From contig WRHP01000005.1 in assembly GCA_009783195.1 (NCBI GenBank), positions 1 to 57,886 of the forward strand: a stretch of 57,886 nucleotides of DNA, read 5' to 3'. The stretch comes from Syntrophorhabdaceae bacterium (GTDB taxonomy: Bacteria > Desulfobacterota > Deferrimicrobia > Deferrimicrobiales > Deferrimicrobiaceae). The position numbers were made by a program, and so were the translations under genes. This document shows positions 26,557-44,925 of this stretch, piece after piece. The notes below the pieces were generated by a model that was given only the letters and a program-made list of their open reading frames with translations, had not been told where the DNA came from and searched no databases. The stretch's first letter is position 1. Every line of letters begins with the position of its first letter.

Positions 26557-26835
26557 ATGAAGACCCCTTTTCGCCAGGCGGCGGCTCTTCGTTACGAACA
26601 GGGAAAAGATTCCGCCCCACGGTTAATTGCAAAAGGAAAAGGCGCCGTTGCTGATAAGATATTAGAGGTTGCGCGGCGCCACGGCATTCCCATTCGCGAA
26701 GACCGGGAGCTGGTTCAGATGCTGGCGTCGCTTGAACTGTACCAGGAGGTCCCGCCCGACTTGTATAAGGCGGTGGCCGAAATCCTTGCCTTCATATACT
26801 CACTGAACCGTGGGGCCGGGAAGGCAAAAATGTGA
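26557..26835 (+). CDS. FlhB C-terminal-like protein (EscU/YscU/HrcU family, FlhX-like)
   Basis: AAALRYE...APRLIAKGKG.VADKI...LYKAVAEIL. Confidence 0.88.
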   Translation: MKTPFRQAAALRYEQGKDSAPRLIAKGKGAVADKILEVARRHGIPIREDRELVQMLASLELYQEVPPDLYKAVAEILAFIYSLNRGAGKAKM

Positions 26836-26845
26836 GGACGAGCGC

Positions 26846-28078
26846 GTGGGGTACAAGGTTTATGTGTATGGTTCGAGAAAGGCCTTTCCTGTAGACGGAC
26901 TGGCCCTTGGTACCCGTCCGCCTTTTGATGTCTTCATCTGCGAAGAAGGAATATTCACCATAGTTATTTCCGCCGGCCAGCATTATGGTCCGGAGGAGAG
27001 AAGCGAACTGTTGGCGCGCGGGATTAGCGAAGTATTCGTCGACGCCAGGGATGCTTCCGAGTTAGAGGCCTACCTTAATCGAACCTCCGAGGAAGTTCCG
27101 GCGCGTCACGAGAACCCGGAGACGGTCAGAGAATACCTTGAGCACATGCGGGACTATTACCAGATCGAACGCGCTTCCCTGGTTCCGGGAGGGCAGATCG
27201 ATTTTGGTCTCTACCGGCTCTTCGATTTGCGCCTTATGCCCGTGGCGGAGCCTGTAAGGGGCGGGTTTGCCGTCATCCCCGCCGGGCTCCCCGTTTTGCG
27301 CGGCGACATTGTTATCCGCAACGAAGATATCCCGCGGTACCAGAGATATCTCGATGCCGCCGCCGGCATGCTTGACGCCGACCCCCGGAAAAAGCGGAAG
27401 ATGCAGGCGATTGCGCTCAAAGAGAAGTCTAAAGCGATCGTCAAGGATCTGCTGGATAATCCGCGCAGTGGCGAGAATATAAAAAAAGCCGTGCAAGTCG
27501 CCGCCGATCTGACCGAATGTATCTTGAATAGCCATGATGTCTTGCAGGATCTCATTACCTTGAGCAGCTACGACCAGTACACCTACACCCATTCGGTTAA
27601 TGTGGCTGTTCTCGCTTCGGGGATCGGTGTTTCCTGCGGACTGGCAAAAGAGATGGTCCAGATCCTCGGAATCGGAGCGGTGCTGCACGATATAGGTAAA
27701 AGCGCCATTCCGTCCGAAATTCTGAACAAGCCGGGCCGGCTTAACGAGCGGGAGTTTGACATAATGAAGGGGCATGTAATGGAAGGGTTCCGGACGATCG
27801 AGTCGAATGACGCGGTTCCCGAAGAATCCCGCGTCGTCATAACCCAGCATCATGAGCGGCTCAGGGGAACCGGATACCCCAATGGTCTGGCCGGGGAGCA
27901 GATTACAATTTTTGGTAGGATCTGCGCTGTAGCGGACTGCTACGACGCGATGACGACAAGCCGCCCATACAAAGACGCAGGGACGCCATTCCAGGCCCTG
28001 ACGCAGATGAAAACAGAAAAATCCAATTACGACGCGGAGATACTGGACAGTTTCATCCGGATGCTCGGCAGGACCTAA
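26846..28078 (+). CDS. HD-GYP domain protein (putative c-di-GMP phosphodiesterase)
   Basis: YTYTHS, LHDIGK, HHERLRGTGYP, DAMT..RPYK; GTG start after GAGGA. Confidence 0.88.
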   Translation: MGYKVYVYGSRKAFPVDGLALGTRPPFDVFICEEGIFTIVISAGQHYGPEERSELLARGISEVFVDARDASELEAYLNRTSEEVPARHENPETVREYLEHMRDYYQIERASLVPGGQIDFGLYRLFDLRLMPVAEPVRGGFAVIPAGLPVLRGDIVIRNEDIPRYQRYLDAAAGMLDADPRKKRKMQAIALKEKSKAIVKDLLDNPRSGENIKKAVQVAADLTECILNSHDVLQDLITLSSYDQYTYTHSVNVAVLASGIGVSCGLAKEMVQILGIGAVLHDIGKSAIPSEILNKPGRLNEREFDIMKGHVMEGFRTIESNDAVPEESRVVITQHHERLRGTGYPNGLAGEQITIFGRICAVADCYDAMTTSRPYKDAGTPFQALTQMKTEKSNYDAEILDSFIRMLGRT

Positions 28079-28339: not shown

Positions 28340-29188
28340 ATGCCATTAGTAATCAACACCAACGTCTCGTCTTTGGGCGCGCAAAAGAACCTGGCCTACA
28401 GCAACACCAAGCTGACAGGATCAGTCCAGCGTCTGTCTTCAGGTCTTCGTGTAAACACCGCAAAAGACGATGCCGCCGGCTTGGCGGTTTCGCAGAAACT
28501 GCGGGCGCAGATCGCCAGCGTTTCGGTCGCCATCCGTAACTCGCAGGACGGCATCTCCCTTTCGCAGACTTCTGAAGGCGGTCTCAACGAAGTCGCCAAC
28601 ATTCTCACCCGTATGCGGGAGTTGTCCGAGCAGTCCGCCAACGGTACCCTCAAGGATGCGGAGCGCAGTTCTCTGAACGTCGAATACGAACAGCTTTATC
28701 AAGAAGTCTCGCGTATCGCCAACGTCACCGAATTTAACGGCGTCAAGCTGCTCAGCGGTCAAGGTTATGACACAGGTACCGGCGTTGTATTGCAGGTAGG
28801 CTTCCAAAACACGGGTGACGACAGAATTGCCTTGAAATTCGCAGGTTTGGATGTGTCGGAAACCTTAGCCGCCTCTCTTAGCCTGGGAGCGGATATCAAC
28901 ACGATGACGGGCGCGCAGAATAACCTCGATGCTATCGACAGCGCGATCGCGCAGGTTTCGTCAGCCCGCGGTATCTTGGGCGCTGTCATGAACCGTCTCG
29001 AGTCCACGATCCAGAACCTGCGTGTTACCCACGAGAACCTCTCGGCCGCGGATTCGGCGATCCGGGATGCGGACTTCGCGTTCGAAGCCTCAACCTTCAT
29101 CCGGAACCAGATCCTGGTTCAGGCTGGAACGTCGATGGTGGCGCAGGCTAACATGCTGCCTCAGGTGGCTCTCACCCTCCTGCAGTAA
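28340..29188 (+). CDS. fliC: flagellin (short, 282 aa)
   Basis: INTN, RLSSGLRVN.AKDDAAG, C-terminal IRDADFA...AQAN.LPQ.AL.LL. Confidence 0.97.
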   Translation: MPLVINTNVSSLGAQKNLAYSNTKLTGSVQRLSSGLRVNTAKDDAAGLAVSQKLRAQIASVSVAIRNSQDGISLSQTSEGGLNEVANILTRMRELSEQSANGTLKDAERSSLNVEYEQLYQEVSRIANVTEFNGVKLLSGQGYDTGTGVVLQVGFQNTGDDRIALKFAGLDVSETLAASLSLGADINTMTGAQNNLDAIDSAIAQVSSARGILGAVMNRLESTIQNLRVTHENLSAADSAIRDADFAFEASTFIRNQILVQAGTSMVAQANMLPQVALTLLQ

Positions 29189-31036: not shown

Positions 31037-31480
31037 ATGACGACGCAGTACGATGCGTACAGGAAAACTACGATTGACACCTCGAACAATGTTCGGATCG
31101 TATCTCTTCTGTTCGATGGGGCGATTAATTTCCTGAAAGTAGCCCGAACCAAGATGGAGCAGCACGACATAGCGGGCAAAGGCGTGTATCTCGGAAAGAC
31201 TACTGCGATCGTCAGTGAGCTTTTGAAAGCGCTTAATATGGAAGAAGGCGGCGAGATTGCTGAAAATCTGCAGCGGCTATACGACTTTGTCCTGGACCGG
31301 CTGCTGCAGGCGAACCTGAAAAACGATCTGCAGTCACTGTATGAGGCGGAACGGGTTTTGGATGACATCCGGTGCGGCTGGAAAGATATGGAACGGAACC
31401 AGATCGCGGCCGCGGCGGCTTGTCCGGCTTCTTCCCCTGTGCGCGCCTCCCATGGCGCGGGAATGGGAGTTCAGGCGTGA
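31037..31480 (+). CDS. fliS: flagellin chaperone FliS
   Basis: LLFDGAI.FL, LNMEEGGEIAENL.RLYDF. Confidence 0.94.
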   Translation: MTTQYDAYRKTTIDTSNNVRIVSLLFDGAINFLKVARTKMEQHDIAGKGVYLGKTTAIVSELLKALNMEEGGEIAENLQRLYDFVLDRLLQANLKNDLQSLYEAERVLDDIRCGWKDMERNQIAAAAACPASSPVRASHGAGMGVQA

Positions 31481-31824
31481 ATCCGGAAACGGAAGCCCTC
31501 TGGACCAGCCTGCGTGATCTGGCGCTGGAACAGAAGGCTGCCGTAGAAGCGGGAAACTTGGACGAGGCAGGCGCTATTGCCGAAAAGCGTCGTCAGATCC
31601 TCCTTGATATTCAAAAAAATGACACTCTTTCCGGGGAAGGAAAGTCATCCGCGCCGGAACTCATGGTCCGAGAGATCCTCGCCATTGATGAAGAAGCTGT
31701 GAAGGTTCTGAAAACCGGAATGCAGGAAGTTTCACAGGAGCTGGAAAATATAAATACTTTCAAGGTGTTATTCCAGGGCGCTATCGACGGCATTCGCTCT
31801 TCGGGTGGTTCGTCGGCTCCCTGA
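31477..31824 (+). CDS. FliT/FlgN-like helical chaperone
   Basis: GTG overlaps the fliS stop; helical protein in the usual fliT position. Confidence 0.55.
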   Translation: MNPETEALWTSLRDLALEQKAAVEAGNLDEAGAIAEKRRQILLDIQKNDTLSGEGKSSAPELMVREILAIDEEAVKVLKTGMQEVSQELENINTFKVLFQGAIDGIRSSGGSSAP

Positions 31825-31862: not shown

Positions 31863-31903
31863 TTGGCAGGACTGTTGCACTAACAGTCCTGCCAACTTTT
31901 TTT
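31863..31903 (+). terminator. rho-independent terminator after the fliD-fliS-fliT operon
   Basis: TTGGCAGGACTGTT-GCACT-AACAGTCCTGCCAA (14-bp stem) followed by C and T7. Confidence 0.85.
31864..31879 (+). promoter_or_regulatory. putative sigma54 promoter embedded in the terminator 5' arm
   Basis: TGGCAG-GACTG-TTGCA (GG-N10-GC). Confidence 0.4.
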
Positions 31904-31994: not shown

Positions 31995-33662
31995 ATGGAA
32001 CTGGAACTGACCCGGCGGGGAAACTATTCGCTGCGAGTTGTCTGTCCGGACGGATCGGAGAGGGTCTTTCACAGCCTTTATGACCCGGAAGGGGAAGCTG
32101 AAGCGCTTGTTGACGCTTCAGGTTTTTCCGGCAGCGGCATGCTTGTCGTGCTTGGCTTGGGGCTGGGCTACCATGTGGACCGGATGCGACGGCTGTATCC
32201 TGACGCGGAGATCGTGGTTATTGAGTCATCGCGTAAGATCTTCGATTTATGCCTGGAGCATGGGAAAGGGGCGCAGCCGTCGGAGAAGGTTCATTTCCTG
32301 GTAGACCTTGCTCCCGAAGAAGCCATATCGGAAGTTTCGCGCATCCATCTCAAAGCGGGGTTTTTGCCCCTCTCTGTTTTTAGCTTTGCGCCAGGGATAG
32401 CTTTTGCGCCCGGATACTACGATCCGATTCGCGCGGCGCTCGAAAAAAGCATCTCTTTCCGGCTCTGGGAGCGGGTCCGGTATCCTAAACTTGCGCCGGG
32501 AAATCTGACGATCGCGCTTTTTGACTTTGGCTACTTCTTGACGGAAGAAATCGCTCGCGCGCTTGCGGCGCTTGGCCATTCGGTGGTGCGCGTCCGCGGG
32601 AAAAAGGACGAAAAGTGCGGCGACATACTGGGGAGAGTTACCGAAACCATCGCTTTGAAGCGCCCCGACTTCTTTCTTACCGTGAATCATTTGGGTTTCG
32701 ACGAAGAGGGTGTGCTTGCCGACTTCTTTGAGTCGATCGGGATGCCGGCTGCTGTCTGGTACGTGGACAACCCCAATCTCCTGATGCGGATTTTTCCGCA
32801 AAATGTTTCGCCTTGCTGTTGTGTCTTCACTTGGGATGAAAGCTATAAGGAATCGCTGCGCGGGATCGGGTTTGAGAATGTGGAATACCTGCCGCTGGCT
32901 GCCGACGAGGAGATTTTCCACCCAATGCGTTTATCTATCGAGCGGAGAAACAGGCTTGGGGCTGATGTCGGGTTTGTAGGCGATTCGAGAGCTTCGTGGG
33001 CGCGGGAGCTGCTCCAAAAGGTGCGGCAAGAGTTGCATCCGGCTGTAAAGCGTGTTGCGCAGCGGCTTTCTGTTGCGCGCAATCTTGCGTTTCACGAGGC
33101 GAAGGAAGCTGAAATGCGTGACAGCGAACATGCTTTGTTTGAGGCGCTGACTGAAAGAGAAAAATCGGATTTTGAGGCGGCGGTTTTTTGGCGGGGAACA
33201 CTTCTTTATCGCCTGTCGTGTTTGCGGACTCTTGAAGAATTTTGCCCTTTGGTGCGCGGCGATGCCGAATGGGGAAAACTGTTAAACGATAAATTCCGGT
33301 TTGGCCCCAGAATCAACTATTACAAAGAGCTTCCCGCCTTTTATAACTTGTGCCGGATCAATTTAAACACGACCAGCATACAGATGGACACGGCGGTCAA
33401 CCAGAGGGTGTTCGATGTTCCTGCTTGTGGGGCGTTTCTGCTTACGGATCGCCGACCGTCTCTTTCGCCCCTTTTTGAGGAGGGGAAAGAGGTGATTGTT
33501 TACGACAGCCCGGAGGAAATCCCGGAGCTTGTGAGGTTTTATCTGCGAAACAATACCGCGCGGGAAGCTGTTGCGGCAAAAGGCAAGGCTCGGGTACTGC
33601 GGGAGCACACGTATAAGCACCGGGTAGACGCAATTATCCGGCGGCTTCGGGATGACCTCTAA
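31995..33662 (+). CDS. Maf-N-like domain + CgeB-family (DUF3880/Glyco_trans_1_2) glycosyltransferase
   Basis: HSLYDP..EA and LGLGLGYH at the N-terminus; WYVDNP, LPLAAD, NQRVFDVPACGAF, EHTY.HR at the C-terminus. Confidence 0.82.
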   Translation: MELELTRRGNYSLRVVCPDGSERVFHSLYDPEGEAEALVDASGFSGSGMLVVLGLGLGYHVDRMRRLYPDAEIVVIESSRKIFDLCLEHGKGAQPSEKVHFLVDLAPEEAISEVSRIHLKAGFLPLSVFSFAPGIAFAPGYYDPIRAALEKSISFRLWERVRYPKLAPGNLTIALFDFGYFLTEEIARALAALGHSVVRVRGKKDEKCGDILGRVTETIALKRPDFFLTVNHLGFDEEGVLADFFESIGMPAAVWYVDNPNLLMRIFPQNVSPCCCVFTWDESYKESLRGIGFENVEYLPLAADEEIFHPMRLSIERRNRLGADVGFVGDSRASWARELLQKVRQELHPAVKRVAQRLSVARNLAFHEAKEAEMRDSEHALFEALTEREKSDFEAAVFWRGTLLYRLSCLRTLEEFCPLVRGDAEWGKLLNDKFRFGPRINYYKELPAFYNLCRINLNTTSIQMDTAVNQRVFDVPACGAFLLTDRRPSLSPLFEEGKEVIVYDSPEEIPELVRFYLRNNTAREAVAAKGKARVLREHTYKHRVDAIIRRLRDDL

Positions 33663-33700: not shown

Positions 33701-34195
33701 ATGGATATTAATAAAAAGAATATGAGTTTAAGCGAAAAGCGGCAAATGCTTGCCAATTTGCTGCTAAATCTTTATCGCAAACATCAAATCATGGAGTCTT
33801 CCAAGCTGTATTACGATAACGAATTGTACAAATTAATAAGAGATTTGCTGGCTGTTATTTCAGACGACGATCAAGCTAATGTTTTGGCGCTTCGCTCCTA
33901 CGACGCATTGCAAGATGATGAATCGAGGCGAATTCATGCTTGTTTGTTTTTGTGCAAGTGTATTGGGATAAGCGATATTGCGGGTATGTGCGCGGAGTTT
34001 GAGGCGCTTAAAGGCGCGGAAAATACGATTCGCAGATGTAAGCCGAAACTCGCTGTCTGCATATACCACAAACCATCGGATGTTGTTGAAATACCGGCGT
34101 TAATTATGAATTTTTTCCCGGAATACAAGTTGTACATAAGACAGCATCACGCAAGGGTTCTAACGGAAATTGTTTTGTATGCATTGCCACAATAG
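33701..34195 (+). pseudogene. internally deleted FkbM-family methyltransferase remnant
   Basis: The C-terminus (AEFEALKGAENTIRRCKPKLAVCIYH...YKLYIRQH...VLYA) is FkbM-like, but the SAM-binding motif I and the KMDIEG motif are missing; AT-rich. Confidence 0.6.
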
Positions 34196-34243
34196 AAATT
34201 GTCAGCACGCGCTACCCATGCCGTATTAACGGAGGTAGTTGGA

Positions 34244-35221
34244 TTGAAAAAAATTCCCATGACAGTGTTGATTACAACGGCGAACAATCCGCCGTCGGGT
34301 GTGCCGTTTTTGGAGATGGTAAACCCGAATATTCGGATGATCGCGGCGAAAGCCGCCTTGTATTTTTGGGTTACTCAAGGAATAGAGCAAATTGTGTTGG
34401 CTGACGCGACAGCAACAAATTTGCTCAGCGAGTACGAAGTGGCGGAAATTGATAAATTACATACGCGCATAGAGCAAATAAGCTATAAACAAGCCGGCGA
34501 AGAAATAATCGAGAGAGGGAAAGGTTACGGCGAAGGCAAGCTTATTGAGTATGCAATCAACAATTCGGAACTACTTGCGCATGAAGAGTCTTTTTTCAAA
34601 TGTACAGGCAAAGTATATGTTCGAAATTTTCCGGATATCGCCGAAATCATAAAGGCTAACAGCATATCGAGCTTATTTTGGAGATACATGGGGGACGGCA
34701 CAGAGGTGAAGCATTGGGCTGATTGCCGGTTCTATTACACATCTAAAAACTTTGCTGAAAATCACCTGATACCTGCCTACCTTGAGTCTCACGATATTAA
34801 TAAGGTCGCTTGTGAAAATTATGTTTATAAAGCGCTTGAACATAATATGAGAGCCGGCAGGGGGGCTCGGCCACTCATAACAGGATATGCTGGTAGTACA
34901 GGCGAAGCGTATTTTGATTTGAGTTTAGGAAGCCTGGATAATAATTTTCCGTGTTGGGTTGGCTATGCTACTAACGTGATCGCGGAACCCGCGCTAACAT
35001 CCGGCGACCTTGAAGACGCAAGGGGAGCTTTGGAGCGGCATCTTATGGAATGCCCTCTTGATGTAGATGCCTTGATACGACATTCGGATATTCTTTTTCG
35101 CTTGGGATCGAAAGAAGCGGCGCTGGAGAGTTTAAATAAGGTGCTGTTGTTTTATCCGGGGCACGAGGAGGCGCTTCGTTGTAAGGTTGCTATCGAAAAT
35201 GCCGCTCTCCGGAGGAAATGA
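34244..35221 (+). CDS. hypothetical polysaccharide-locus protein (GKGYGE motif) with C-terminal TPR
   Basis: TTG start after GGAGGT; AT-rich core with GKGYGEGKLI and FFKCTGK; TPR-like helices from ~34985. Confidence 0.6.
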   Translation: MKKIPMTVLITTANNPPSGVPFLEMVNPNIRMIAAKAALYFWVTQGIEQIVLADATATNLLSEYEVAEIDKLHTRIEQISYKQAGEEIIERGKGYGEGKLIEYAINNSELLAHEESFFKCTGKVYVRNFPDIAEIIKANSISSLFWRYMGDGTEVKHWADCRFYYTSKNFAENHLIPAYLESHDINKVACENYVYKALEHNMRAGRGARPLITGYAGSTGEAYFDLSLGSLDNNFPCWVGYATNVIAEPALTSGDLEDARGALERHLMECPLDVDALIRHSDILFRLGSKEAALESLNKVLLFYPGHEEALRCKVAIENAALRRK

Positions 35222-35277
35222 CGCCGTATATTTGGAGAAAAATTTTAAAAAAACCTGAAATACTATCGTTGCGGCTT
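35189..35277 (+). repeat. decayed third copy of the island junction repeat
   Basis: GCTATCGAAAATGCCGCTCTCCGGAGGAAATGACGCCGTATATTTGGAG...CGGCTT aligns to 38442-38529; ATG is replaced by GTA. Confidence 0.75.
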
Positions 35278-35296
35278 ATTGTTTACGGAGATAGTA

Positions 35297-37102
35297 ATGA
35301 GCGGACATAGAAACATAACAATGATTTTGGAAATCAGTAAAAGTACCCCGGAAATTTTAAACCATACCGAATTTTTTGATGAATTTCTTCAGAAAGGCAA
35401 CCGGGCGATAGTTATACATGACGAATCGTTCAAAGCGCCTTGTGAAATCAAAGGTGATATATCGTTTTACAGCTTGTCGCCTGGAGCGACAAGCGTGGAT
35501 ATATGCAACTACGCGGTATTCGAACTGGATAAAACCGAAAACGATGTGTTGGTTGTGTCGCAGGATCTGCGCCCGGAGTCGATATCATTTTATGACGAAA
35601 TGTCTTCATGTTTATACGTCTGTGAAAAACACGCCGTTGTGTGCGCAAGAAACGAGGCTTCAGGGCCGCTTAATGATGCCGCCAAAAAATACCTTCCGTC
35701 ATTTCACGTGACCTCAGATGTTGACGCGGGTTGTGTTCTTATAAAAAGAAAAATTATTGATAATCTGGGGTTTTTGTTGCGGAAGTCGGCTAACCTTAAA
35801 TATTCCTTGATGGATTTTTGTTACACAATAAACGGCTACGGCTATAGCGCGGTTATTTCAAACCATGCCACTGTCTCATACCCGCGTGAACCGCAAAATA
35901 AAGATGAAGAAGAGGTTTTCCTTAGCACGTTCCCCGGTCGCGAAAATGTAGAACACAGCAAAGATATTTTTAATATCCATCCATGCTTGTGGTTTTTAGA
36001 TCTGCTTGCGGAAAATTACTATCCTGTGCCAAAAATATTGTTTGATTTTTCCGCGATGCCTAAAATATATTGCGGCACTTCTGAAAGCATGCTTTCATTT
36101 TTTAACGCGTTCTATAAATTATATAGAAAACATTATAATATTTATGTACTAATAAGACCAGATGTGGATAAATCTTTAGGATTGTCGAAAAAATATCCTG
36201 ATGCGCACTTTTTAGAAACGATAAAAGAAACATTTCATTTGGGCATTGCAATTAATCAGCCCTGGTATATGAATCAGAATATTATATTTAATAAGCACTG
36301 TCTTAAAGTAGTGTTTTGGATGCTGGATATTATCATGGCGCGTTGTGAATATATCGTCCCTGTCAAGGAAAGGGCAGTGCTGGTCAAGGCTCTAAGGCTT
36401 GGAATGAGGCTTGCGGACGGGATAATTTCAATCAGTGATTTTACCACAAAAGATTACAAGGCGTATTTATCCTCTTACGCGGAGGCGGTAAATAAGCCTG
36501 TTAAAACGATTTATCTTGCAAGTAATTTTTCTCCAAACGATACCAGGCATCCGGATCTTCCTTTTGACAAATATTTTCTAATAGTGGGAAATCCTTATAA
36601 GCATAAAGCCATTAACAATATCTTGAACGTACTTGTGGAAAGCCCGCATAATTTTATTGTGGTTGGAGGGGCGTATACGGGGCATGTCACTAATAACATA
36701 TATTTTTACCAAAGCGGCGCTATGCCTGAAGATTTTCTAAGTTCTTTGTATACGAATTGCGAAGCGCTGATCTTTCCCAGCCTGTATGAGGGTTTTGGTT
36801 TGCCTGTGACAATAGGGCTCAAGAATAAAAAACGGGTAATACTCTACAATAACGAACTTAACAGGGAACTGACAGCCCTTTATAAAGATTTTTCGGAATA
36901 CCTGATTTATTTTGATTACTTCCACCAAATCCCGGCTCTTATTGATTCTATAGATTTTAACGCCTCCTTGCCGAATGTAGGGTATAGTCGTACTTGGGAT
37001 GATGTTGCGGCAGACGCGGAAGTGTTTTTTAAAGATATTTTAGATACCGAAACAGATGTGGAAAGGTTATTTGACAGATGGGAAAGGCTTTCATTTTTTT
37101 AA
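35297..37102 (+). CDS. AT-rich glycosyltransferase (degenerate GT2-like N-terminus + GT4/Glycos_transf_1 C-terminus)
   Basis: LIFPSLYEGFGLPV (EX7E region, second E absent), GNPYKHK, ADGIISISDFT. Confidence 0.75.
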   Translation: MSGHRNITMILEISKSTPEILNHTEFFDEFLQKGNRAIVIHDESFKAPCEIKGDISFYSLSPGATSVDICNYAVFELDKTENDVLVVSQDLRPESISFYDEMSSCLYVCEKHAVVCARNEASGPLNDAAKKYLPSFHVTSDVDAGCVLIKRKIIDNLGFLLRKSANLKYSLMDFCYTINGYGYSAVISNHATVSYPREPQNKDEEEVFLSTFPGRENVEHSKDIFNIHPCLWFLDLLAENYYPVPKILFDFSAMPKIYCGTSESMLSFFNAFYKLYRKHYNIYVLIRPDVDKSLGLSKKYPDAHFLETIKETFHLGIAINQPWYMNQNIIFNKHCLKVVFWMLDIIMARCEYIVPVKERAVLVKALRLGMRLADGIISISDFTTKDYKAYLSSYAEAVNKPVKTIYLASNFSPNDTRHPDLPFDKYFLIVGNPYKHKAINNILNVLVESPHNFIVVGGAYTGHVTNNIYFYQSGAMPEDFLSSLYTNCEALIFPSLYEGFGLPVTIGLKNKKRVILYNNELNRELTALYKDFSEYLIYFDYFHQIPALIDSIDFNASLPNVGYSRTWDDVAADAEVFFKDILDTETDVERLFDRWERLSFF

Positions 37103-37145
37103 ATGTTGAGAAAGAGATAAATAATGTGCGTATGCGCGTCTTGAG

Positions 37146-37681
37146 TTGAGGATACCGCTCCCCAAAGGAAATGACGCCATGTATTTAGAGCAAAACCTGA
37201 AAAAACTTGAAACGCTCTCCCCTCGGCTTGCAAAGCGTTTGCGCGACGCCGAATGCGCCGGAAGCGTCACCGTCGTTACGTCGAAGGCCGGGCTGCCGTC
37301 GATAAAAATAGAAGACGCGTTACTGCACAGCTTATACGACCCGGCGCGGGAAGCCCGCGATTGGGTGGAGCACCATCAGGCCGATACCGAAGCGGCATCT
37401 TCTATCGCGGTGCTTGGGGTTGGCTTTGGATATCATGTGGAAGAGTTGTTGCGCGTCACGAACAAGCCGGTGGTGGCGTTTGAGCCCCGTTTAGACGTTT
37501 TGCGGGCCGCCGCTACGGCGCGTGATATGTCCGCGCTGTTTTCGCGAGTTAAGATCGCGTGCTGCCCCGACGACCTTGAGGTTCCGACGGCGGACGGGCT
37601 GCTTTGCATACTGCGGTATGAGCCGTCCGTGCGCCTTGATCCTGCCGCTCACAAAGAAGCCGAATCCCGCATGGAGACGCT
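37146..37681 (+). repeat. direct repeat copy A (~536 bp)
   Basis: Matches 38446-38981 at an offset of exactly 1300; about 25 mismatches by eye, no indels. Confidence 0.95.
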
Positions 37682-38474
37682 GCGTACCGGCGAGCAAGAC
37701 GCGTCGCAAGCTTTTACGCCTCAAGTGGTTGCGGCGCCAGAAGAAGAAAGCGCCCCGGACCGCTCCTATTACCGCCAATCCCGGCCGGATATCGAAGCAA
37801 TGATCCCCGTCCGCGCTTTACGGATACTGGATATAGGGTGTGGCGAAGGCGTGCTTGGGCGTAATCTCTTGAAAAAAAGGGCGATCGAAGTTGTCGGAAT
37901 AGAGGCGGATCCGGCGGCGGCGGAAGCCGCGCGCAAGAACTTGACGCGAGTTTTACATGGTGATGCGGAGACGATGGATTTTCCGTTTGAGGATGGGTAC
38001 TTCGATTGCGTCGTCCTTGCGGATGTTCTGGAACACATGCGTGATCCGCTCTCGATCCTTAAAAAAGCAAAACGGTGTCTTTCCGGTTCGGGTGTTGTTG
38101 TGGCAAGTATTCCCAACGTCCGGTTTATAGGTGTGCTGAATCTGCTTGTTGAAGGGCGATGGGAGTACAGGGACGAAGGGATTCTCGACCGGACCCATCT
38201 GCGGTTTTTTACGAGGAAGGAAATGGAAATCCTGTTTTGCGACGCCGGGTTTGAGCTGGAAAAAGTTTTCGAAAATATGGCCCCGGAATACGCTTCCGTT
38301 CCCTCCGGCCACAAAGGTGATATTACATTTGGTCGTGTTGCGCTTCGTGACCAGACGCTGGAAGAAATAAAGGATCTGTTCGTTATCCAATACGTATTTC
38401 GTGTCCGGAAGGTCGGTTTAGCCGCAATTTCTGTTAACGAGGCTATTGAGGATACCGCTCCCCAAAGGAAATGA
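37179..38474 (+). CDS. Maf-N-like domain + class I SAM-dependent methyltransferase fusion
   Basis: N-terminus encoded by the repeat; then YY...RPD, ILDIGCGEG, ADVLEH..DP, SIPNV, GILDRTHLRFFT. Confidence 0.82.
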   Translation: MYLEQNLKKLETLSPRLAKRLRDAECAGSVTVVTSKAGLPSIKIEDALLHSLYDPAREARDWVEHHQADTEAASSIAVLGVGFGYHVEELLRVTNKPVVAFEPRLDVLRAAATARDMSALFSRVKIACCPDDLEVPTADGLLCILRYEPSVRLDPAAHKEAESRMETLRTGEQDASQAFTPQVVAAPEEESAPDRSYYRQSRPDIEAMIPVRALRILDIGCGEGVLGRNLLKKRAIEVVGIEADPAAAEAARKNLTRVLHGDAETMDFPFEDGYFDCVVLADVLEHMRDPLSILKKAKRCLSGSGVVVASIPNVRFIGVLNLLVEGRWEYRDEGILDRTHLRFFTRKEMEILFCDAGFELEKVFENMAPEYASVPSGHKGDITFGRVALRDQTLEEIKDLFVIQYVFRVRKVGLAAISVNEAIEDTAPQRK

Positions 38475-38981
38475 CGCCATGTATTTAGAGCAAAACCTGA
38501 AAAAACTTGAAGCGCTCTCCCCTCGGCTTGCAAAGCGTTTGCGCGACGCCGAATGCGCCGGAAGCGTTACCGTCGTTACGTCGAAGGCCGGGCTACCGTC
38601 GATAAAAATCGAAGACGCGTTACTGCACAGCTTATACGACCCGGCGCGGGAAGCCCGCGATTGGGTGGAGCACCATCAGGCCGATATCGAAGCGGCGTCT
38701 TCTATCGCGGTGCTTGGAGTTGGCTTTGGATATCACGTGGAAGAATTGTTGCGCGTCACGAACAAGCCGGTGGTGGCGTTTGAGCCCCGGTTAGACGTTT
38801 TGCGGGCCGCCGCTACGGCGCGTGATATGTCCGCGCTGTTTTCGCGAGTTCAGATCGCGTGCTGCCCCGACGACCTTGAGGTTCCGCCGACGGACGGTTT
38901 GCTTTGCGTCCTGCGGTATGAGCCGTCCGTGCGTTTTGATCATGCCGCGCACGAGGAAGCCGCATCCCGCTTGGAGACGCT
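38446..38981 (+). repeat. direct repeat copy B (~536 bp)
   Basis: See copy A. Confidence 0.95.
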
Positions 38982-40266
38982 CCATGCTGTCGCGCGAGGG
39001 TTGAATATAGCCGTGGTCGGCCCGTTCTACGGAGGATCGCTGCCTGTTGCGGGCTACTGCGTTTCGGCGCTGCAAAGTTGCGGACACAATGTGGAATTTA
39101 TCGACAACAGCGTCTATGCGGATGCATTACTCTCGATCGACGGGATGACGGATAGCCAAACTCACCGAAGGATCTTGATGGGAAAGTTGGGGGAGTTTGC
39201 GTCCGAGGCGGCAATGGCGCGGATCGTACAGTTTCGTCCCGATATCGTGCTTGCGCTGGCGCAGGCGCCGCTTAATCCGCCGTCCCTGAAGATTCTAAGA
39301 GAAAATGGAGTCGTGACCGCGTTCTGGTTCGTGGAAGATTTACACCATATGGGGTATTGGCGGGATCTCGCCGGCGAATACGATTATTTCTTCGGGATAC
39401 AAGAAAACCTCCTGGATATGCTGCGTGAAGCGGGCGCGCCACGTCCGGCATTTCTTCCTTTGGCGGCGTCTCCTGATATTCACCGAAAGATGGATCTGGA
39501 CGCGGAAGATCTTGCGGAGTTTGGCAGCGATGTTTCCTTTGTTGGCGCGGGGTATCACAACCGGCGGCAAATGTTCACGGGGCTTATAGACCTCGATTTC
39601 CGGATATGGGGCAACGATTGGGATGGATGTCCGGGCAGGCTTAGGCCGTTTCTGCAGCGGGATGGCGCGCGCGTGGACACCGAAGACATTGTGAAAGTGT
39701 TCAACGCCAGCCGGATCAATATCAATCTGCACTCCTCCAGCTACCATGAAGGCGTAAACCCCGACGGCGATTTTATAAATCCGCGAACATTTGAAATCGC
39801 GGCTTGCGGCGCTTTCCAGCTTGTGGACTCAAGAAAGAAGCTTTCCGATTTCTTTCAAATCGGAGAGGAGATCGTGTGTTTTGACAATCTTGCCGATCTG
39901 CGCGCCAAGATCGCCCGGTATCTGGAAGATCCCGAAGAGAGAAAAGCGGTAGCCGAGCGTGGCATGCGGCGGGTTCAAAGGGACCATACATATAAGCGCC
40001 GGATGGAGGAAATGATAGGCTTCATGGTCCGGTCGGGCTTGCGTCTGCCGTGGCGGGAGGAGCGAAGGCGGGAGGACCCCGGAAAGCTTATAGCCGAGGC
40101 CGGAGCGGATACCGAGCTTGGGAAATATCTGGCCCGCTTTGCCGGGGCGCGCAACCTGAAACTTGCGGACATTTTGCAGGAGATTAAGAAAGAGAAAGGG
40201 GATCTCTCGCGTGTCGAGCGGATTTTCCTGACTATGGAGGCGTTTCAGGCATGGGCGCGGAAATAA
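38479..40266 (+). CDS. Maf-N-like domain + CgeB-family glycosyltransferase
   Basis: HSLYDP, GP.YGGSLP, FWFVED, LPLAA, NPRTFEIAACGAFQ, HTY..RM. Confidence 0.85.
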   Translation: MYLEQNLKKLEALSPRLAKRLRDAECAGSVTVVTSKAGLPSIKIEDALLHSLYDPAREARDWVEHHQADIEAASSIAVLGVGFGYHVEELLRVTNKPVVAFEPRLDVLRAAATARDMSALFSRVQIACCPDDLEVPPTDGLLCVLRYEPSVRFDHAAHEEAASRLETLHAVARGLNIAVVGPFYGGSLPVAGYCVSALQSCGHNVEFIDNSVYADALLSIDGMTDSQTHRRILMGKLGEFASEAAMARIVQFRPDIVLALAQAPLNPPSLKILRENGVVTAFWFVEDLHHMGYWRDLAGEYDYFFGIQENLLDMLREAGAPRPAFLPLAASPDIHRKMDLDAEDLAEFGSDVSFVGAGYHNRRQMFTGLIDLDFRIWGNDWDGCPGRLRPFLQRDGARVDTEDIVKVFNASRININLHSSSYHEGVNPDGDFINPRTFEIAACGAFQLVDSRKKLSDFFQIGEEIVCFDNLADLRAKIARYLEDPEERKAVAERGMRRVQRDHTYKRRMEEMIGFMVRSGLRLPWREERRREDPGKLIAEAGADTELGKYLARFAGARNLKLADILQEIKKEKGDLSRVERIFLTMEAFQAWARK

Positions 40267-41966
40267 AAGAAATTCTCGTTGTCAACACAATGCGCATGGG
40301 AGACCTCGTCCAGACGACGCCAACGCTTATGGGGCTTAGAAAAAAGTGGCCCGACGCCAGGATCACCGTCCTTGTGAATTCGGTGTTTAAAGAGATCTGC
40401 AAAGGCATGCCGTTCATCGATAATCTTATTGTTTGCAAAAAGGGCGAATTCGTAAAAATGTTCGAGAAAGAGAATAAATACTCGCTTGTTGAGTGTTATC
40501 GGCGCATTGAAGAGTTGGTAGACGAGGTAAACCAGACAGAATACGACCTGATGATCAATCTTACGCCGTCGCCCGATAGCGCTTTGCTGGTGTCGCTGTT
40601 TAATGCGCGTGAGATGCGAGGGGTAACAGCGGGCGCCGACGGCGCTCGGGTTATCCGGCATCCCTGGCAGCGGTATCTGATGAACGTGATTCCCTCCCGC
40701 AAGTACAATCCGTTCCACTTGAGCGACATCATGATAAAAACCGCCGGCATTCCTCATTCCGGCGACGGGCTTAGCCTTTCCGTGTCAGACGAGGAGAGCG
40801 CAAAGGCAAGGGCGCTTCTGGAGCAGTTTGGAGTAAACGACGGCGACTTGCTGATCAGTTTTCAACTCGGGGCAAGCAAGGAGTTGAGAACCTGGCCGGT
40901 TGCTTCTTTCGCGCGGCTTGGGGACTTGCTTACGGAGTCGCTTAAAGCGCGCATCCTGCTTACAGGATCAAATTCAGAGGAGAAACTTGGAAAAGAGTTT
41001 GAATCCGCCTTCTCCCACAAGGCAATAAATCTTATAGGGAAGACCAACTTGAGAGAGGTGGCCGCGCTTTTGAAGCGGTGCTCCATTCTGGTTACAAACG
41101 ACACGGGGCCGCTTCATATAGCAACGGCGGTCGGCACAACCGCCATCGCCCTGTTTCTTGGGCACGCCTGCTGCCGGGAGACCGGTCCTTACGGGGAAGA
41201 TCATTACGTGATAGAGGCGGACATCTTATGCAGTCCGTGCGGGCATGCTGTTAAATGCACTAATCACCTGTGTAAAAAGATGGTTACGCCGGACTGCGTC
41301 TTGGAACTTGCGGCGCGCATTCTTTCTTCGGGACGGATAGAGAAACTTGAGGATGGCCCGGTATGGGAGAGCGTCCGTGTTTTCCGCTCCTGCTTTGCGC
41401 CGGACGGCATGCAGGATTACGCTCCGCTTCTTCGCCGCACGCTGACTCCAGAGGTGTTCTATCAGTATATTTATCGGGAAACGTGGCTCCGCGTCCTTGA
41501 CGGCGATTCCGGGTTTCGCGCGGAAGAAATTTGCGGCGTGATAGAGGCGAGGGTATCCGCCTGGTACCGGGAAGGCGATCTGGTGTCGGTGCTGCGGGTA
41601 GCCGGCGAAGACCTTTCGACGCTGCGCAAAATGGAAGCATTGGCCGAAGAGGCCTCGACGAGGATATCGCTTATAAAAAACGAAATAGACAAGCCGTCAC
41701 CCGACGTTGGGTTGATTCAACGCGTCTGGAAGGATGCGCCGGTCATCGACCGTGAGATCGATACGCTGGGACGCACTCATCCCGCGCTCATGCCGCCGGT
41801 CATGATGTTCAGGTATGACAAAGAGGCGTTGGAAGGGAAAGAACTTGCGCCGATGGTGGAGGCCGCCGTAGGGTTTTATGCCGATCTCAAGAAACACTTT
41901 TCCATGCTTACGGCAACAATTGAGCTTCTCCTTGAAAAGCACGTAAAAACAGCGCGAGACTCATGA
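40251..41966 (+). CDS. GT9-family (heptosyltransferase-like) glycosyltransferase with C-terminal extension
   Basis: RMGDLVQT.P, QLGAS...R.WP, VTNDTGPLHIA.AVG, C.PC. Confidence 0.85.
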   Translation: MGAEIKEILVVNTMRMGDLVQTTPTLMGLRKKWPDARITVLVNSVFKEICKGMPFIDNLIVCKKGEFVKMFEKENKYSLVECYRRIEELVDEVNQTEYDLMINLTPSPDSALLVSLFNAREMRGVTAGADGARVIRHPWQRYLMNVIPSRKYNPFHLSDIMIKTAGIPHSGDGLSLSVSDEESAKARALLEQFGVNDGDLLISFQLGASKELRTWPVASFARLGDLLTESLKARILLTGSNSEEKLGKEFESAFSHKAINLIGKTNLREVAALLKRCSILVTNDTGPLHIATAVGTTAIALFLGHACCRETGPYGEDHYVIEADILCSPCGHAVKCTNHLCKKMVTPDCVLELAARILSSGRIEKLEDGPVWESVRVFRSCFAPDGMQDYAPLLRRTLTPEVFYQYIYRETWLRVLDGDSGFRAEEICGVIEARVSAWYREGDLVSVLRVAGEDLSTLRKMEALAEEASTRISLIKNEIDKPSPDVGLIQRVWKDAPVIDREIDTLGRTHPALMPPVMMFRYDKEALEGKELAPMVEAAVGFYADLKKHFSMLTATIELLLEKHVKTARDS

Positions 41967-42421: not shown

Positions 42422-42463
42422 TTAGACCAAAACCATATTAATGGAAACAGAATACTTTTTTAG

Positions 42464-42498
42464 GCTTTCCTGACAACAGTCTCAGGAAAGCTTTTTTT
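42464..42498 (+). terminator. rho-independent terminator
   Basis: GCTTTCCTGA-CAACAGTC-TCAGGAAAGC followed by T7. Confidence 0.82.
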
Positions 42499-42686: not shown

Positions 42687-44198
42687 ATGCCGATTATGGA
42701 AAATGAAAGGAAAGGCCAGATACTGATCGTCGATGATGACGCAAGTGTTCGCGGTCTCCTTTCACAGGTTCTTGCGGAAGCGGTGAATTACGACATAGAT
42801 ATGGCTGCCGACGGCGTGGAAGGGCTTGAAAAGGTTTGCTCCAAACAGTACGACCTCATATTTACAGATCTCACGATGCCTCGCATGAGCGGTATGGATT
42901 TCCTTCAGAAAAGTAAAGAAATCAACGCCTCCATTCCGGTAATTGTCCTTACCGGGCTTTCCTCAATGGAAGTCGCCGTTTCCGCAATGCGCAAAGGGGC
43001 CTCCGATTTCCTGACAAAGCCGTTTACAATCGACAAGATTATACAAACCACCAGACGTGTTCTCGGCGAGTGGAAACTGTACGGTCGGCTTGTCTCGAAG
43101 CAAGGCTCCGACGAGTCGCTAAAGATGTTGAACGCCGAGTTGTTCAAGCGACTTCAGGAGATAGGGGCGCTCCACTCGATCGGCCTCGAGGTTGACGGCT
43201 GCCTCGATAACCGGGAGATCTACAGCCGGGTGGCGCAAATGGCGGCGAAACTTTTGGCGGTGCGCGAGGCGTTTTTCGGCATCGTTGAGGGAGATCGCTT
43301 GAACATCCGCTCATCCGTCGGAATCAACAGCGATTTATTCCCCATCTCCGGGCGCTTGTTTGATACTGTCATTCGTGACAAGAAACACTTTATAGCTGAT
43401 ATAAAAAAGCCGCATCCCTATACCGGCGTTGAGCTTATGTCCCAGTTCCTGGCGATTCCGTGCCTCGTCGGAAACGACGTGTTCGGTATCCTGAATCTCT
43501 CCGGAAAGACGGACAGCGCTTCTTTTACCGAGGAAGAGATCTTCATCGCTATCAATCTGGCCCGGAAGATCTCGTCAAAGATCGAAAATAACGCGCTGTA
43601 CGAGGCTTTATTCAATAACGTCGCCGATACGATGAAATCAATCATCACCATGGTCGGCGCGCGGGATTCCTATACGAAGGAGCACTCCGACCGGGTTACG
43701 ATGTACTCTGTTCTGATTGCGGAGGCTATGGGGGTTCCCCAGGGAGAGATAAGCACACTACGGTTTGGCGGATACCTGCACGATATCGGTAAGATCGGGG
43801 TCCGCGACACGGTGCTTCTCAAGCCGGGCAAGCTGTCGCTGGGAGAGATAGGCGAGGCGCAACTTCATGCCGTCATCGGCGACGAAATCGTAAAGCCCAT
43901 GAACTTCTTCGAGAAGGAACGCAAGGTCATACGGAATCACCACGAGCGATACGACGGAAAAGGTTATCCTGACGGTATCGGAGGCGAGGACATCCCGATC
44001 ATAGTCCGGATTCTGACCGTAACGGATGCGTATGACGCCATGACGTCTCATCGCCCTTACCGGAGGGCGCTTTCGGTCCAGATGGCAGTCGAAGAGCTGG
44101 AACGTTGCGCGGGTTCGCAGTTTGATCCGGCGGTAGTGGAGGCTTTCAAAGCGATACTTAGTGAAAAGGAGATTTTAGATGGCACTGGACATCGGTAA
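42687..44198 (+). CDS. response regulator with REC-GAF-HD-GYP domains
   Basis: ILIVDDD/DLTMP/TKPF; GAF-like middle; LHDIGK, HHERYDGKGYP, RPYR. Confidence 0.88.
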   Translation: MPIMENERKGQILIVDDDASVRGLLSQVLAEAVNYDIDMAADGVEGLEKVCSKQYDLIFTDLTMPRMSGMDFLQKSKEINASIPVIVLTGLSSMEVAVSAMRKGASDFLTKPFTIDKIIQTTRRVLGEWKLYGRLVSKQGSDESLKMLNAELFKRLQEIGALHSIGLEVDGCLDNREIYSRVAQMAAKLLAVREAFFGIVEGDRLNIRSSVGINSDLFPISGRLFDTVIRDKKHFIADIKKPHPYTGVELMSQFLAIPCLVGNDVFGILNLSGKTDSASFTEEEIFIAINLARKISSKIENNALYEALFNNVADTMKSIITMVGARDSYTKEHSDRVTMYSVLIAEAMGVPQGEISTLRFGGYLHDIGKIGVRDTVLLKPGKLSLGEIGEAQLHAVIGDEIVKPMNFFEKERKVIRNHHERYDGKGYPDGIGGEDIPIIVRILTVTDAYDAMTSHRPYRRALSVQMAVEELERCAGSQFDPAVVEAFKAILSEKEILDGTGHR

Positions 44199-44925
44199 AA
44201 AGGTCCTCTTCAAGGCGATGCCGGAGATCGTCTTTCAGCAGGCTACGATAATATCCTCGGATGAAGACACGATCGTGCTTGATGTCGCGGGGAAAAAGGA
44301 CATCAGTATCGGTCAGCGAATCATGATCTCCGCCGACGGGAGCCATCTGTTCACAAAAGTTGTTGCTTGCGAACAGGGCGCGGTTAAAGTGCGCAAAACA
44401 TGGTCGAACAACCGCAGCTATTTCCGGGTGGATGATGTTGTGCCGCTTGTAATCAGAAAAGTGATGCCGGGCGAGCCGGTAGGCGTGTCGCGGTCGTTCC
44501 CGTTTAGCGACGTCGTCTCTTCCACCGCAAAGGAAACGGTCGTCCCGGATGTGGACCCGCGTGTTTGGCAGATGCTCGTCAATATCCATGCGATGCTCGG
44601 GATGATTCTGGAGCGCCTCGACATGCGGGCCGAAGGGTTCCTGAAAGCGGAGAATACGCGGGTGAATATGAGCGCGACCGGGATGGCTTTCCGCACGAAG
44701 GAGCGTTTGGAACTGGGGGATCTGGTCGAAGTCAAGATGCTCCTTCCGGCCCGGCCGTCTTTGGGTATGATCGTGTACGGAAATATCGTCCGCGCTGACG
44801 ATGTGGGGAATGGGGAAATAGAGATAGCGCTGCATTTTGGGGAGATGAGCGAGGATCTGCGCAACGAGATCAACCAGTATTCGCTTATGCGCCAGCGAGA
44901 GATTATCCGCAGCGCCAGGGAATAG
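44179..44925 (+). CDS. PilZ-domain (c-di-GMP-binding) protein
   Basis: RSYFR (RxxxR) and NMSATG ([D/N]xSxxG); directly upstream of the stator genes. Confidence 0.78.
   Translation: MALDIGKKVLFKAMPEIVFQQATIISSDEDTIVLDVAGKKDISIGQRIMISADGSHLFTKVVACEQGAVKVRKTWSNNRSYFRVDDVVPLVIRKVMPGEPVGVSRSFPFSDVVSSTAKETVVPDVDPRVWQMLVNIHAMLGMILERLDMRAEGFLKAENTRVNMSATGMAFRTKERLELGDLVEVKMLLPARPSLGMIVYGNIVRADDVGNGEIEIALHFGEMSEDLRNEINQYSLMRQREIIRSARE

Follow-up and report, generated by a model that had tools for sequence, protein, structure and literature searches.

In a 57,886-nt stretch of Syntrophorhabdaceae DNA (contig WRHP01000005.1; this whole stretch is referred to as the window), a glycan-modification operon next to the flagellin gene contains three copies of one short junction, in which the end of one gene is followed by the start of another. 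The question raised by this locus is what these copies are. The original prediction took them for the boundaries of an accordion-like cassette array that produces programmed variation of the flagellar glycan. Our data indicate that they probably arose by segmental duplication, together with differential loss and horizontal transfer, in a slot of flagellar glycosylation genes that is hypervariable, and not as parts of a dedicated cassette machine. The features that bear directly on this question are the following.

34985..35221, plus strand: tetratricopeptide repeat (TPR) tail, the C-terminal ~79 aa of protein P340 (TPR_14/16/19 matches).
35189..35285, plus strand: junction copy A, a dead relic (repeat search, BLAST and alignment).
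37146..37178, plus strand: leftmost part of repeat copy B, in which the end of the upstream gene with the ribosome-binding site (RBS) survives as a non-coding relic; 100% identical to 38446-38478.
37179..38474, plus strand: P442 (431 aa), a chimera of a Maf-type N-terminal (Maf-N) head and an S-adenosylmethionine (SAM) methyltransferase, with its true ATG at 37179 (Pfam and alignments of relatives).
38446..38981, plus strand: repeat copy C, consisting of the end of P442, TGA, 4 nt, and the ATG and Maf-N head of P606 (repeat search, MAFFT and BLAST).
38479..40266, plus strand: P606 (595 aa), a Maf-N head, a DUF3880/Glyco_trans_1_2 glycosyltransferase (GT) of the GT-B type and a helical C-terminal tail; the conserved right anchor of the slot, with its true ATG at 38479 (Pfam).

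Copies B (37146-37681) and C (38446-38981) form a direct repeat of 536 nt whose members lie 1300 nt apart, are 95-97% identical and differ at 25 of the 536 positions. The repeat was recovered by a repeat search, by MAFFT, by BLAST against the whole assembly and by self-BLAST of the window, where it is the sole self-match at E<=1e-10; past 37686, the identity of the two copies falls to 30%. Copy A was matched by BLAST in the 1.74-Mb assembly at 35199-35260 with 79% identity (E 4.7e-7), and was extended by alignment to 35189-~35285. A degenerate pattern made from copies A and C gave no chance matches in 100 shuffles, a control that is partly circular because the pattern was built from the same copies. 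The junction therefore does occur three times, once in a decayed but significant form, and the copies do lie at domain boundaries, as the original prediction had claimed on both counts. It had also placed foreign AT-rich DNA between copies B and C, and there it was mistaken: the segment between them is a native methyltransferase domain.

The content of the two upstream copies indicates how they arose. Copy A holds the last ~10 codons of the gene that ends in the TPR tail, with the TGA stop; after 4 nt, ~20 codons of a Maf-N head follow, in which GTA has replaced the ATG and the frame stops after 10 codons. Over this stretch, copies B and C agree with each other at every position (100%), and copy A shows 72-79% identity to them; copy A is too short and diverged for efficient recombination. 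The first 33 nt of copy B correspond to the last 9-10 codons, the stop and the RBS of the upstream gene and are non-coding here; the relic reads ..EDTAPQRK*, and its frame is shut by a stop just upstream. The presence of this relic implies that the duplicated DNA spanned the boundary between two genes. At the left edge of copy B (37135-37156), the sequence reads ..CTTGAG followed by TTGAGG..., a 5-nt microhomology (TTGAG) that may mark an illegitimate join, and a similar [VI]-E motif stands at either end of the TPR deletion in P442.

Comparisons were made with the loci of 7 relatives, the genomes of 40 relatives, metagenomic loci (L handles) and 92 related loci (898,693 bases). Relatives with 60-67% GC are open in all six frames, and genes were taken from tblastn with the window proteins and from same-strand open reading frames (ORFs) checked with Pfam. 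The TPR tail lies directly 5' of the P606 orthologue in 6 of the 7 loci (P340 aa ~257-337 at 54-67% identity by tblastn), and in 5 of those 6 it is contiguous with the methyltransferase (P442 aa ~191-424 at 60-73%). In five same-genus genomes and one other-genus genome, the P606 orthologue starts 1-5 nt past the upstream stop, and the last residues of the upstream gene in these six genomes follow the pattern ..LLF.PG.E.AL..KAAIE......*. Judged from these sequences, the junction is a normal stop/RBS/start gene boundary that is probably translationally coupled. Of the 7 loci from relatives, 6 have it once each, as do the metagenomic loci L035 and L036, and the unduplicated arrangement is present in L035, L036, G001-G005 and G015. 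The upstream gene encodes a single 954-aa protein with GT2, GT4, methyltransferase and TPR parts in G004, and a 448-aa GT-TPR protein in G015, with Pfam TPR matches in the homologues of both genomes.

The closest relative found is the metagenome locus L035 (GC 0.52), in which fliD is 79%, fliS 85%, P555 72% and P606 77% identical to the window proteins. Its order is fliD-fliS-orf-P555, then one 959-aa GT2-GT4-methyltransferase-TPR gene, then P606, and it contains neither the repeat nor the AT-rich block described below. A search of genome contigs with P606 gave one locus, L023, at 68% identity, and nothing beyond the loci of the G genomes. The order shown by these relatives, and taken from their sequences as ancestral, is P555, a GT2-GT4-linker-methyltransferase-TPR gene, P606 (Maf-N and GT-B) and a GT9 gene. 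In L018 (G005:C4), which belongs to a 10-contig genome, the P606 orthologue and the GT2-GT4-methyltransferase-TPR gene are each split over several frames, reflecting either frameshift pseudogenes or assembly indel errors.

In the window, this ancestral gene is found in two pieces. Residues 641-875 of the G004 protein correspond to 37740-38444, the methyltransferase in P442, and residues 875-952 correspond to 34979-35212, the TPR at the end of P340, at 64% identity. P442 is composed of the Maf-N head (37179-37688), a linker that goes back to the GT4-methyltransferase linker of the ancestral gene (37689-37760), a class I SAM methyltransferase (37761-~38444) and the last 10 codons of the tail gene; its frame of 431 aa is open and its SAM motif is present. 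Residues 166-424 match the methyltransferase part of the 959-aa gene of L035, with the linker homology beginning at aa 166. At the C-terminus, an alignment made by eye places the methyltransferase-TPR linker (..AAISVNEA) directly before IEDTAPQRK*, so that the TPR appears to have been removed in frame. In P340 and in P0122, a protein of another assembly, a stand-alone ~240-aa protein is joined to the same linker a few residues before ..VESALASGDLE... Because both chimeras hold overlapping pieces of the linker, they fit a state with two methyltransferase-TPR copies followed by complementary losses. The two pieces also show similar divergence from the proteins P0002 and P0003, at 70% identity for the TPR tail and 69-74% for the P442 methyltransferase. 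Among the 120 matches listed for P442, from a search that covered protein lengths of 237-755 aa, more than 60% of the query is covered by P442 itself only, and a literature search of incomplete coverage found no paper describing a Maf-N-methyltransferase fusion. A separate break is seen in P0038 (267 aa; head 75% identical), where the Maf-N head is joined straight to a P606-type C-terminal helical tail and the GT-B part is gone; the breakpoint follows ..SRLE.L, the same place as in the P442 fusion, and the protein may be either a genuine deletion variant or an artefact in the assembly of its 3.3-kb contig.

The history that best accommodates these observations would begin with a tandem duplication running from the GT4-methyltransferase linker to the end of the Maf-N head, which would have placed a head before the methyltransferase copy and created the chimeric P442. 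The downstream methyltransferase copy would then have lost its TPR by in-frame deletion, and the upstream copy would have lost GT2-GT4-methyltransferase to incoming AT-rich DNA, with its TPR tail becoming fused to a foreign ~240-aa protein in P340. A foreign glycosyltransferase, P607, would have truncated a further head copy and left relic A. If this history is correct, the three junctions are copies of one gene boundary and not dedicated recombination sites. Features of tandem duplication are present in the form of a head-to-tail direct repeat across a gene boundary, unduplicated relatives and an intact chimeric ORF. Single minimal series of events were also considered (a single duplication, a Campbell-type insertion and a three-copy array), and none of them explains three junction copies without extra steps.

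The content of the slot upstream of the head-GT gene differs among the relatives, as the original prediction had proposed. This position is occupied by a GT2-GT4-methyltransferase-TPR gene in G001-G005, L035 and L036, by a GT-TPR gene in G015, and by ~13 kb of sugar-synthesis, GT, methyltransferase and TPR genes in G025, while in G007, G017 and G020 nothing lies between the fliS-orf and the head-GT gene (judged by position, without a Pfam check). L034 has a P606 orthologue of 77% identity, preceded by a gene for a GT1-type enzyme without TPR and a ~100-nt spacer, which indicates that the cargo changed without the junction being kept. Different cargo between the same junctions was not seen: the cargo does differ, but relatives have one copy of the boundary or, in L034, none.

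Upstream neighbors were then tabulated for the metagenomic loci. From 80 loci, 56 were kept in which the match starts within query residue 35; 7 of these were dropped for having less than 700 nt upstream and 6 for lacking a same-strand ORF near the start, so that 43 were scanned. The upstream neighbor contained a methyltransferase in 8 of the 43 loci, GT1/GT2 with TPR in 1, TPR only in 2, Glyco_trans_1_2 without a methyltransferase or TPR match in 5, GT9 in 15, an MptE-like (Maf) domain in 5, GT1 only in 1, HDOD in 1 and no family in 5. The head alone was found in 1100 representative proteins at E<=1e-3, and its partners in 24 scanned proteins were MptE-like, DUF3880 with Glyco_trans_1_2, GT9, GT2 and GT17; a methyltransferase was its partner in the window's own protein only. 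Both the Maf-N head and the TPR tail therefore occur with many catalytic domains, and the domain shuffling that had been claimed for this locus is real. The neighbor in L071:1-8961 is an extreme TPR-tailed multidomain form, an ORF of at least 2986 aa that is open at the contig end and on the same strand as the head-GT gene, with two methyltransferase regions, a GT47-like domain, four GT2 stretches and a C-terminal TPR.

Several observations speak for the cassette array. The cargo of the slot ranges from GT2-GT4-methyltransferase-TPR and GT-TPR to GT1 without TPR, a 13-kb sugar island or nothing; breakpoints recur at the head end (P442 and P0038) and at the methyltransferase-TPR linker (P442 and P340/P0122); and a TPR-ending multidomain enzyme with varied catalytic parts lies directly 5' of the head-GT gene in 11 of the 43 metagenomic loci (9 by Pfam, and L035 and L036 by tblastn). 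Breakpoints at domain linkers would, however, also be left by selection for functional chimeras. The window scans with Pfam covered 49 distinct ORFs at thresholds that varied (1e-2, 1e-5 and 1e-8), and none of the 49 belongs to a recombinase, integrase or transposase family. There is no att-like structure and no inverted repeat flanks the units, the only inverted pairs being two weak ones of 26-28 nt at 75-77% that are placed elsewhere. Relatives that have the junction have it once per locus, and self-BLAST of the 92 related loci gave no direct repeat of at least 300 nt at 85% identity or more; the largest repeats there, one of 220 nt at 97% in L093 and one of 605 nt at 71% in L076, lie away from the head boundary. 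In addition, copy A is a decayed pseudo-start, and L034 changed its cargo without a tail junction. For these reasons, the repeats are not accepted here as cassette boundaries or as a capture site, and a programmed array of this kind is considered highly improbable. A unit could plausibly be gained or lost through the B/C pair only, and that unit is the single head-methyltransferase gene: RecA might delete or amplify these 1.3 kb through the repeat.

The left anchor of the slot, and the AT-rich part that lies between it and copy B, comprise the following features.

31995..33662, plus strand: P555, a Maf-N-like head with DUF3880 and Glyco_trans_1_2 (CgeB-like GT-B); the left anchor of the variable slot (Pfam).
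33701..34195, plus strand: P164, an AT-rich ORF, possibly the C-terminal remnant of an FkbM-type methyltransferase (sub-threshold Pfam match; GC at third codon positions, GC3, 0.455).
34244..34984, plus strand: N-terminal ~240 aa of P340, an uncharacterised stand-alone family fused in frame to the TPR tail (GC3 0.455; no Pfam family).
35297..37102, plus strand: P607, an AT-rich two-domain glycosyltransferase with a C-terminal Glycos_transf_1 domain, directly 3' of the head relic (Pfam; GC3 0.40).

Along the window, the GC content is 0.35-0.45 at 33.7-37.1 kb compared to 0.50-0.60 in the surroundings, and the GC3 of the AT-rich genes is 0.40-0.46 compared to 0.60-0.66 in the backbone. Homologs were absent from all 40 relatives' genomes for P607 (E<=1e-10) and for the P340 N-domain (E<=1e-5), and neither of these nor P164 had a tblastn match in any of the 7 relatives' loci. 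The best database matches of P607 do not exceed 42% identity, and Oscillospiraceae metagenome-assembled genomes (MAGs) are the one taxon that is named for any of them. Of the 112 matches of P340, 108 are proteins of 178-294 aa that cover 48-76% of the query, in the N-terminal domain only; the whole length is covered only by the window protein and by P0122 (82% identical), and P0002 and P0003 match the tail only. The N-domain thus belongs to a widespread stand-alone family of ~240 aa. Its closest cluster with a name in the Atlas is WavE, at a score of 0.90 that makes it a lead and no more, and a first metagenome scan with P340 as query found no relative. Composition and distribution together indicate that P607 and the P340 N-domain were horizontally acquired. 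The claim that the AT-rich genes are foreign accordingly holds for these genes, and fails for the methyltransferase between copies B and C. For P164, which is probably a decaying gene, the 'FkbM remnant' of the original prediction has the matching Pfam family, Methyltransf_21, but only at 18.1 bits against a cut-off of 22.7 and over profile positions 124-156. In one contig (record 1, flanks 97-89% identical) of run X1, whose contigs were made by a second assembler, 33820-34172 (353 nt, P164) is replaced with 50 other letters, which indicates a co-occurring strain without most of the putative remnant; further X1 contigs part from the window sequence at 34710 and 34796, within P340.

The AT-rich DNA also allows a different history for the tail. 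The whole block 33701-37145, including the TPR tail and relic A, may have come from a foreign homologous flagellar glycosylation locus, in which case the TPR of P340 would not be the tail lost by the native methyltransferase. This would suit the contiguity and AT-richness of the block, the tail GC3 of 0.48, and the fact that relic A is 72-79% identical to copies B and C while these are fully identical to each other there. It would also suit P0122, which already has the P340-TPR fusion in its own assembly, and the identity of the tail to that of L035, which is 62% compared to 68-85% for other genes. On the other side, the native methyltransferase-TPR region of L035 is also low in GC (0.485-0.50), the tail is as close to P0002/P0003 as the P442 methyltransferase is, the break of the G004 protein is complementary at aa 875, and both GC3 and identity are noisy at 79 codons. 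Arrival as a single block is therefore regarded as possible but doubtful, and it would be compatible with the preferred explanation by duplication, loss and transfer.

The differences between the two head copies were used to judge their age and selection. Head codons 1-124 contain 8 synonymous and 2 non-synonymous changes, giving a synonymous divergence (dS) of 0.09, a non-synonymous divergence (dN) of 0.007 and a dN/dS of ~0.08, and codons 125-170 contain 8 synonymous and 11 non-synonymous changes (dS 0.28, dN 0.11). Across 15 head-bearing proteins, 13 residues are invariant, and both copies retain all 13. The codon changes indicate that both head copies are under purifying selection and that both genes are probably functional, and the duplication is not brand new.

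It was also considered whether the second head or the head-methyltransferase fusion is a chimera of co-occurring strains produced during assembly. The genome is a MAG of 81 contigs and 1.74 Mb that is 88% complete, X1 contains strain variants in this region (the 353-nt replacement in P164 and the loose ends at 34710 and 34796), and the fusion occurs in no other protein among the matches listed. X1, in which 0.86 of the sampled words are present, probably represents the sample from which the genome came. Its contigs, from the different assembler, nevertheless bridge relic A (record 3, 34726-36810), the point where head(B) meets the methyltransferase (record 5, 37604-38475, with flanks of 86 and 785 letters) and the point where head(C) meets GT-B (record 6, 38911-39401). 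In the contig graph, every path into the methyltransferase segment comes from a head and every path out of it leads to the junction; a linear genome with this methyltransferase must therefore contain two heads. The 25 differences in 536 positions have a synonymous bias that would not result from an artefact. X2, from another study, holds pieces of P607, the head, the methyltransferase and P606 at 90-99% identity, none of which bridges a breakpoint. No joint skipping 1300 nt was present in the X1-X3 contigs, although contigs drop rare variants and X2 and X3 cover only parts of the stretch. The contig depth was ~6.6 over the AT-rich block compared to ~13, but these are per-contig values that cannot rank parts of a gene. 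An assembly artefact is consequently judged very unlikely.

The possible functions of the modules were assessed with profiles and structural models. The Maf N-domain PF20157 was matched in P442 (30.7 bits) and P606 (28.7 bits) with a cut-off of 23.5, and PF01973, the MptE-like/Maf_flag10 catalytic domain, had no match in P555, P442 or P606 at E<=0.01. The head-only model had a predicted local distance difference test score (pLDDT) of 95.5, and its best match in the PDB was Maf 5mu5 from Magnetospirillum (E 3.6e-6; template modelling (TM) score 0.61), followed by spermidine synthases and class I methyltransferases, which are Rossmann folds. The Maf N-domain is described as a degenerate Rossmann-like fold of unclear function (PMC11339370, available text). 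The AlphaFold model of P606 had a pLDDT of 86 and its GT-B part matches TreT/GT4 enzymes, and the P606 sequence had no match among PDB chains at E<=1. In the P340 tail, TPR_14 scored 23.9 bits with a cut-off of 23.5. The two-copy complex prediction of the head, concerning a dimerisation that would link P442 to P606, returned 'no answer' with a score of 0.00 and is evidence in neither direction.

By analogy, the TPR tail can be read as a flagellin adaptor because FlmG pairs a substrate-binding TPR with a catalytic module; the FlmG TPR domain was necessary and sufficient for flagellin binding, with a two-hybrid assay used (PMC7591256, available text). Each enzyme would combine a catalytic domain with a module that is not itself catalytic, either the TPR tail or the Maf-N head, and these modules probably direct their enzymes to flagellin or to a modification complex. 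On that view, the methyltransferase would have swapped a TPR adaptor for a Maf-N adaptor, and the newly acquired enzyme would have inherited the TPR. A broader proposal joins these ideas: the head and the TPR would be interchangeable docking adaptors that underwent a natural adaptor swap, and the 536-nt repeat, kept by gene conversion, would serve as a RecA-dependent copy-number switch. We consider this combination unlikely. If it were true, the switch would delete or amplify the 1.3-kb head-methyltransferase unit in some cells and produce heritable, reversible variation in glycan methylation.

Several points weigh against the explanation by duplication, loss and transfer. It is costly, as three copies require two or more duplications, or else an array of three copies, and in addition one deletion and two insertions of foreign DNA. 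The TPR tail has a GC3 near that of the foreign genes and sits within a contiguous AT-rich block, and it may have arrived with that block. The synonymous divergence is uneven along the repeat (0.09 and 0.28, with 8 synonymous changes in each part), which means that the duplication may be older and its 5' part later homogenised by gene conversion. Support for the assembly comes from X1, the probable source sample, and records 4 and 5 extend only 30 letters into copies B and C at their left edges, where the bridging criterion asks for 31; stops at this length are explained because k=31 unitigs are expected to end there. Finally, flagellin glycosylation and the binding of the head and the TPR to flagellin are argued from analogy, and the literature calls the role of the Maf N-domain unclear (PMC11339370, available text).

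The operon that contains the slot extends from P555 to P139 (31995-42421, plus strand; within 31.9-42.5 kb). In the Pfam scan of the window, flagellin (28340-29188, 282 aa), flaG, fliD and fliS lie directly upstream, and the remaining window genes are flagellar, chemotaxis and Tol-Pal genes. Its other features are the following.

31863..31895, plus strand: strong terminator-like hairpin that closes the fliD-fliS-orf150 unit just 5' of the operon (15-pair stem, then T-run).
40251..41966, plus strand: GT9-family (heptosyltransferase-like) glycosyltransferase that adjoins P606 in relatives too (Pfam).
42462..42493, plus strand: strong terminator-like hairpin that ends the operon after P139 (hairpin search).

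The enzyme families of the operon by Pfam are Glyco_trans_1_2, Glycos_transf_1, Glyco_transf_9 and SAM methyltransferase. Sugar-nucleotide synthesis genes (e.g. for nonulosonic acid) were absent from the 49 window ORFs scanned and may sit elsewhere in the 88%-complete genome. P555 is a distant paralog of P606 with the same architecture (23-36% identity by BLASTP). In the relatives, orthologues of P555 are 55-72% and those of P606 62-77% identical, and the GT9 neighbor is 57-69% identical in the closer loci and 34% in L022 (tblastn). The small proteins orf150 (31372-31824, after fliS) and P139 (42002-42421, after GT9) belong to no Pfam family and have orthologues at the same positions in relatives. 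Three HD-type signalling proteins are encoded at 26810-28078, 42687-44198 and 14909-15760, namely an HD_5 protein, a response regulator with HD-GYP-type motifs (seen by eye in the translation) and an HDOD protein, and a PilZ protein at 44179-44925. Their presence in the flagellar super-locus suggests control of motility by cyclic di-GMP (c-di-GMP). The organism is an uncultured member of termite-gut metagenomes.

The locus offers a clear, datable example of how new flagellin-modifying enzymes may arise, in which an ancestral gene would have been split by duplication and complementary loss, while a relative with a 77%-identical P606 orthologue keeps it in one piece. The products are a Maf-N-methyltransferase and a TPR-tagged foreign enzyme, and neither architecture is found beyond one near relative among the matches listed. 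Our survey shows the Maf N-terminal domain to be portable, as it is combined with MptE-like, CgeB-like GT-B, GT9 and GT2 domains and here with a methyltransferase. The hypothesis that the head and the TPR are adaptors is testable, and it bears on the engineering of cytoplasmic O-glycosylation.

In kind, the locus is familiar: hypervariability and abundant horizontally acquired DNA are well known from flagellar glycosylation regions. The flagellin glycosylation islands (FGIs) of Geobacillus are described as lower in GC, horizontally acquired and highly variable, and like them the window has a GT and methyltransferase cluster of varying content beside flagellin, fliD and fliS; their G+C is ~10% lower, which was read as horizontal acquisition (PMC5109656, available text). 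Unlike what that text describes for the FGIs, the window is without sugar-nucleotide genes or a transposase in the 49 ORFs scanned and has a chimeric gene born from duplication. The type B flagellin GT2 of Clostridioides difficile, a glycosyltransferase with a PF08241-type methyltransferase that is proposed to add and methylate sugars, resembles the ancestral GT2-GT4-methyltransferase-TPR gene in joining GT and methyltransferase (PMC5207246, available text). As described there, it lacks a Maf-N head and a TPR tail, whereas in the window the methyltransferase is separated from the GT domains. PMC13130089 makes no mention of recombination, hybrid, chimeric, gene conversion or duplication.

The heads in the window are Maf-type N-terminal domains, and the fold match to 5mu5 agrees with the published description of Maf (PMC11339370, available text). 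In contrast to Maf, P555, P442 and P606 are without the MptE-like/Maf_flag10 domain, their heads being joined to GT-B or a SAM methyltransferase, and they are not members of the Maf family; the MptE-like domain is present in other head-bearing proteins scanned. The joining of a TPR module to a catalytic module recalls FlmG, the TPR and GT-B flagellin O-glycosyltransferase of Caulobacter, but the FlmG TPR is N-terminal and ~300 aa long while the tail here is C-terminal and ~75 aa (PMC7591256, available text). The hosts of the TPR tail are GT2-GT4-methyltransferase proteins in the relatives and a ~240-aa protein of an uncharacterised family in the window.

The maf family of Campylobacter jejuni (Karlyshev et al. 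2002) is reported to vary via homopolymeric tracts and to be linked to variable motility phenotypes. As in that family, several head-bearing paralogues are present in one flagellar glycosylation locus; unlike it, no homopolymeric tract was noted in the stretches read here, of which no dedicated scan was made. As a general mechanism, tandem-duplication junctions can create chimeric genes. The window resembles such cases in its head-to-tail repeat, its ORF that crosses two genes, its relic of the 3'-end of a neighbor and its unduplicated relatives, and it differs from a simple tandem-duplication chimera in the complementary domain loss and the two foreign insertions, which have left the duplication unit no longer intact.

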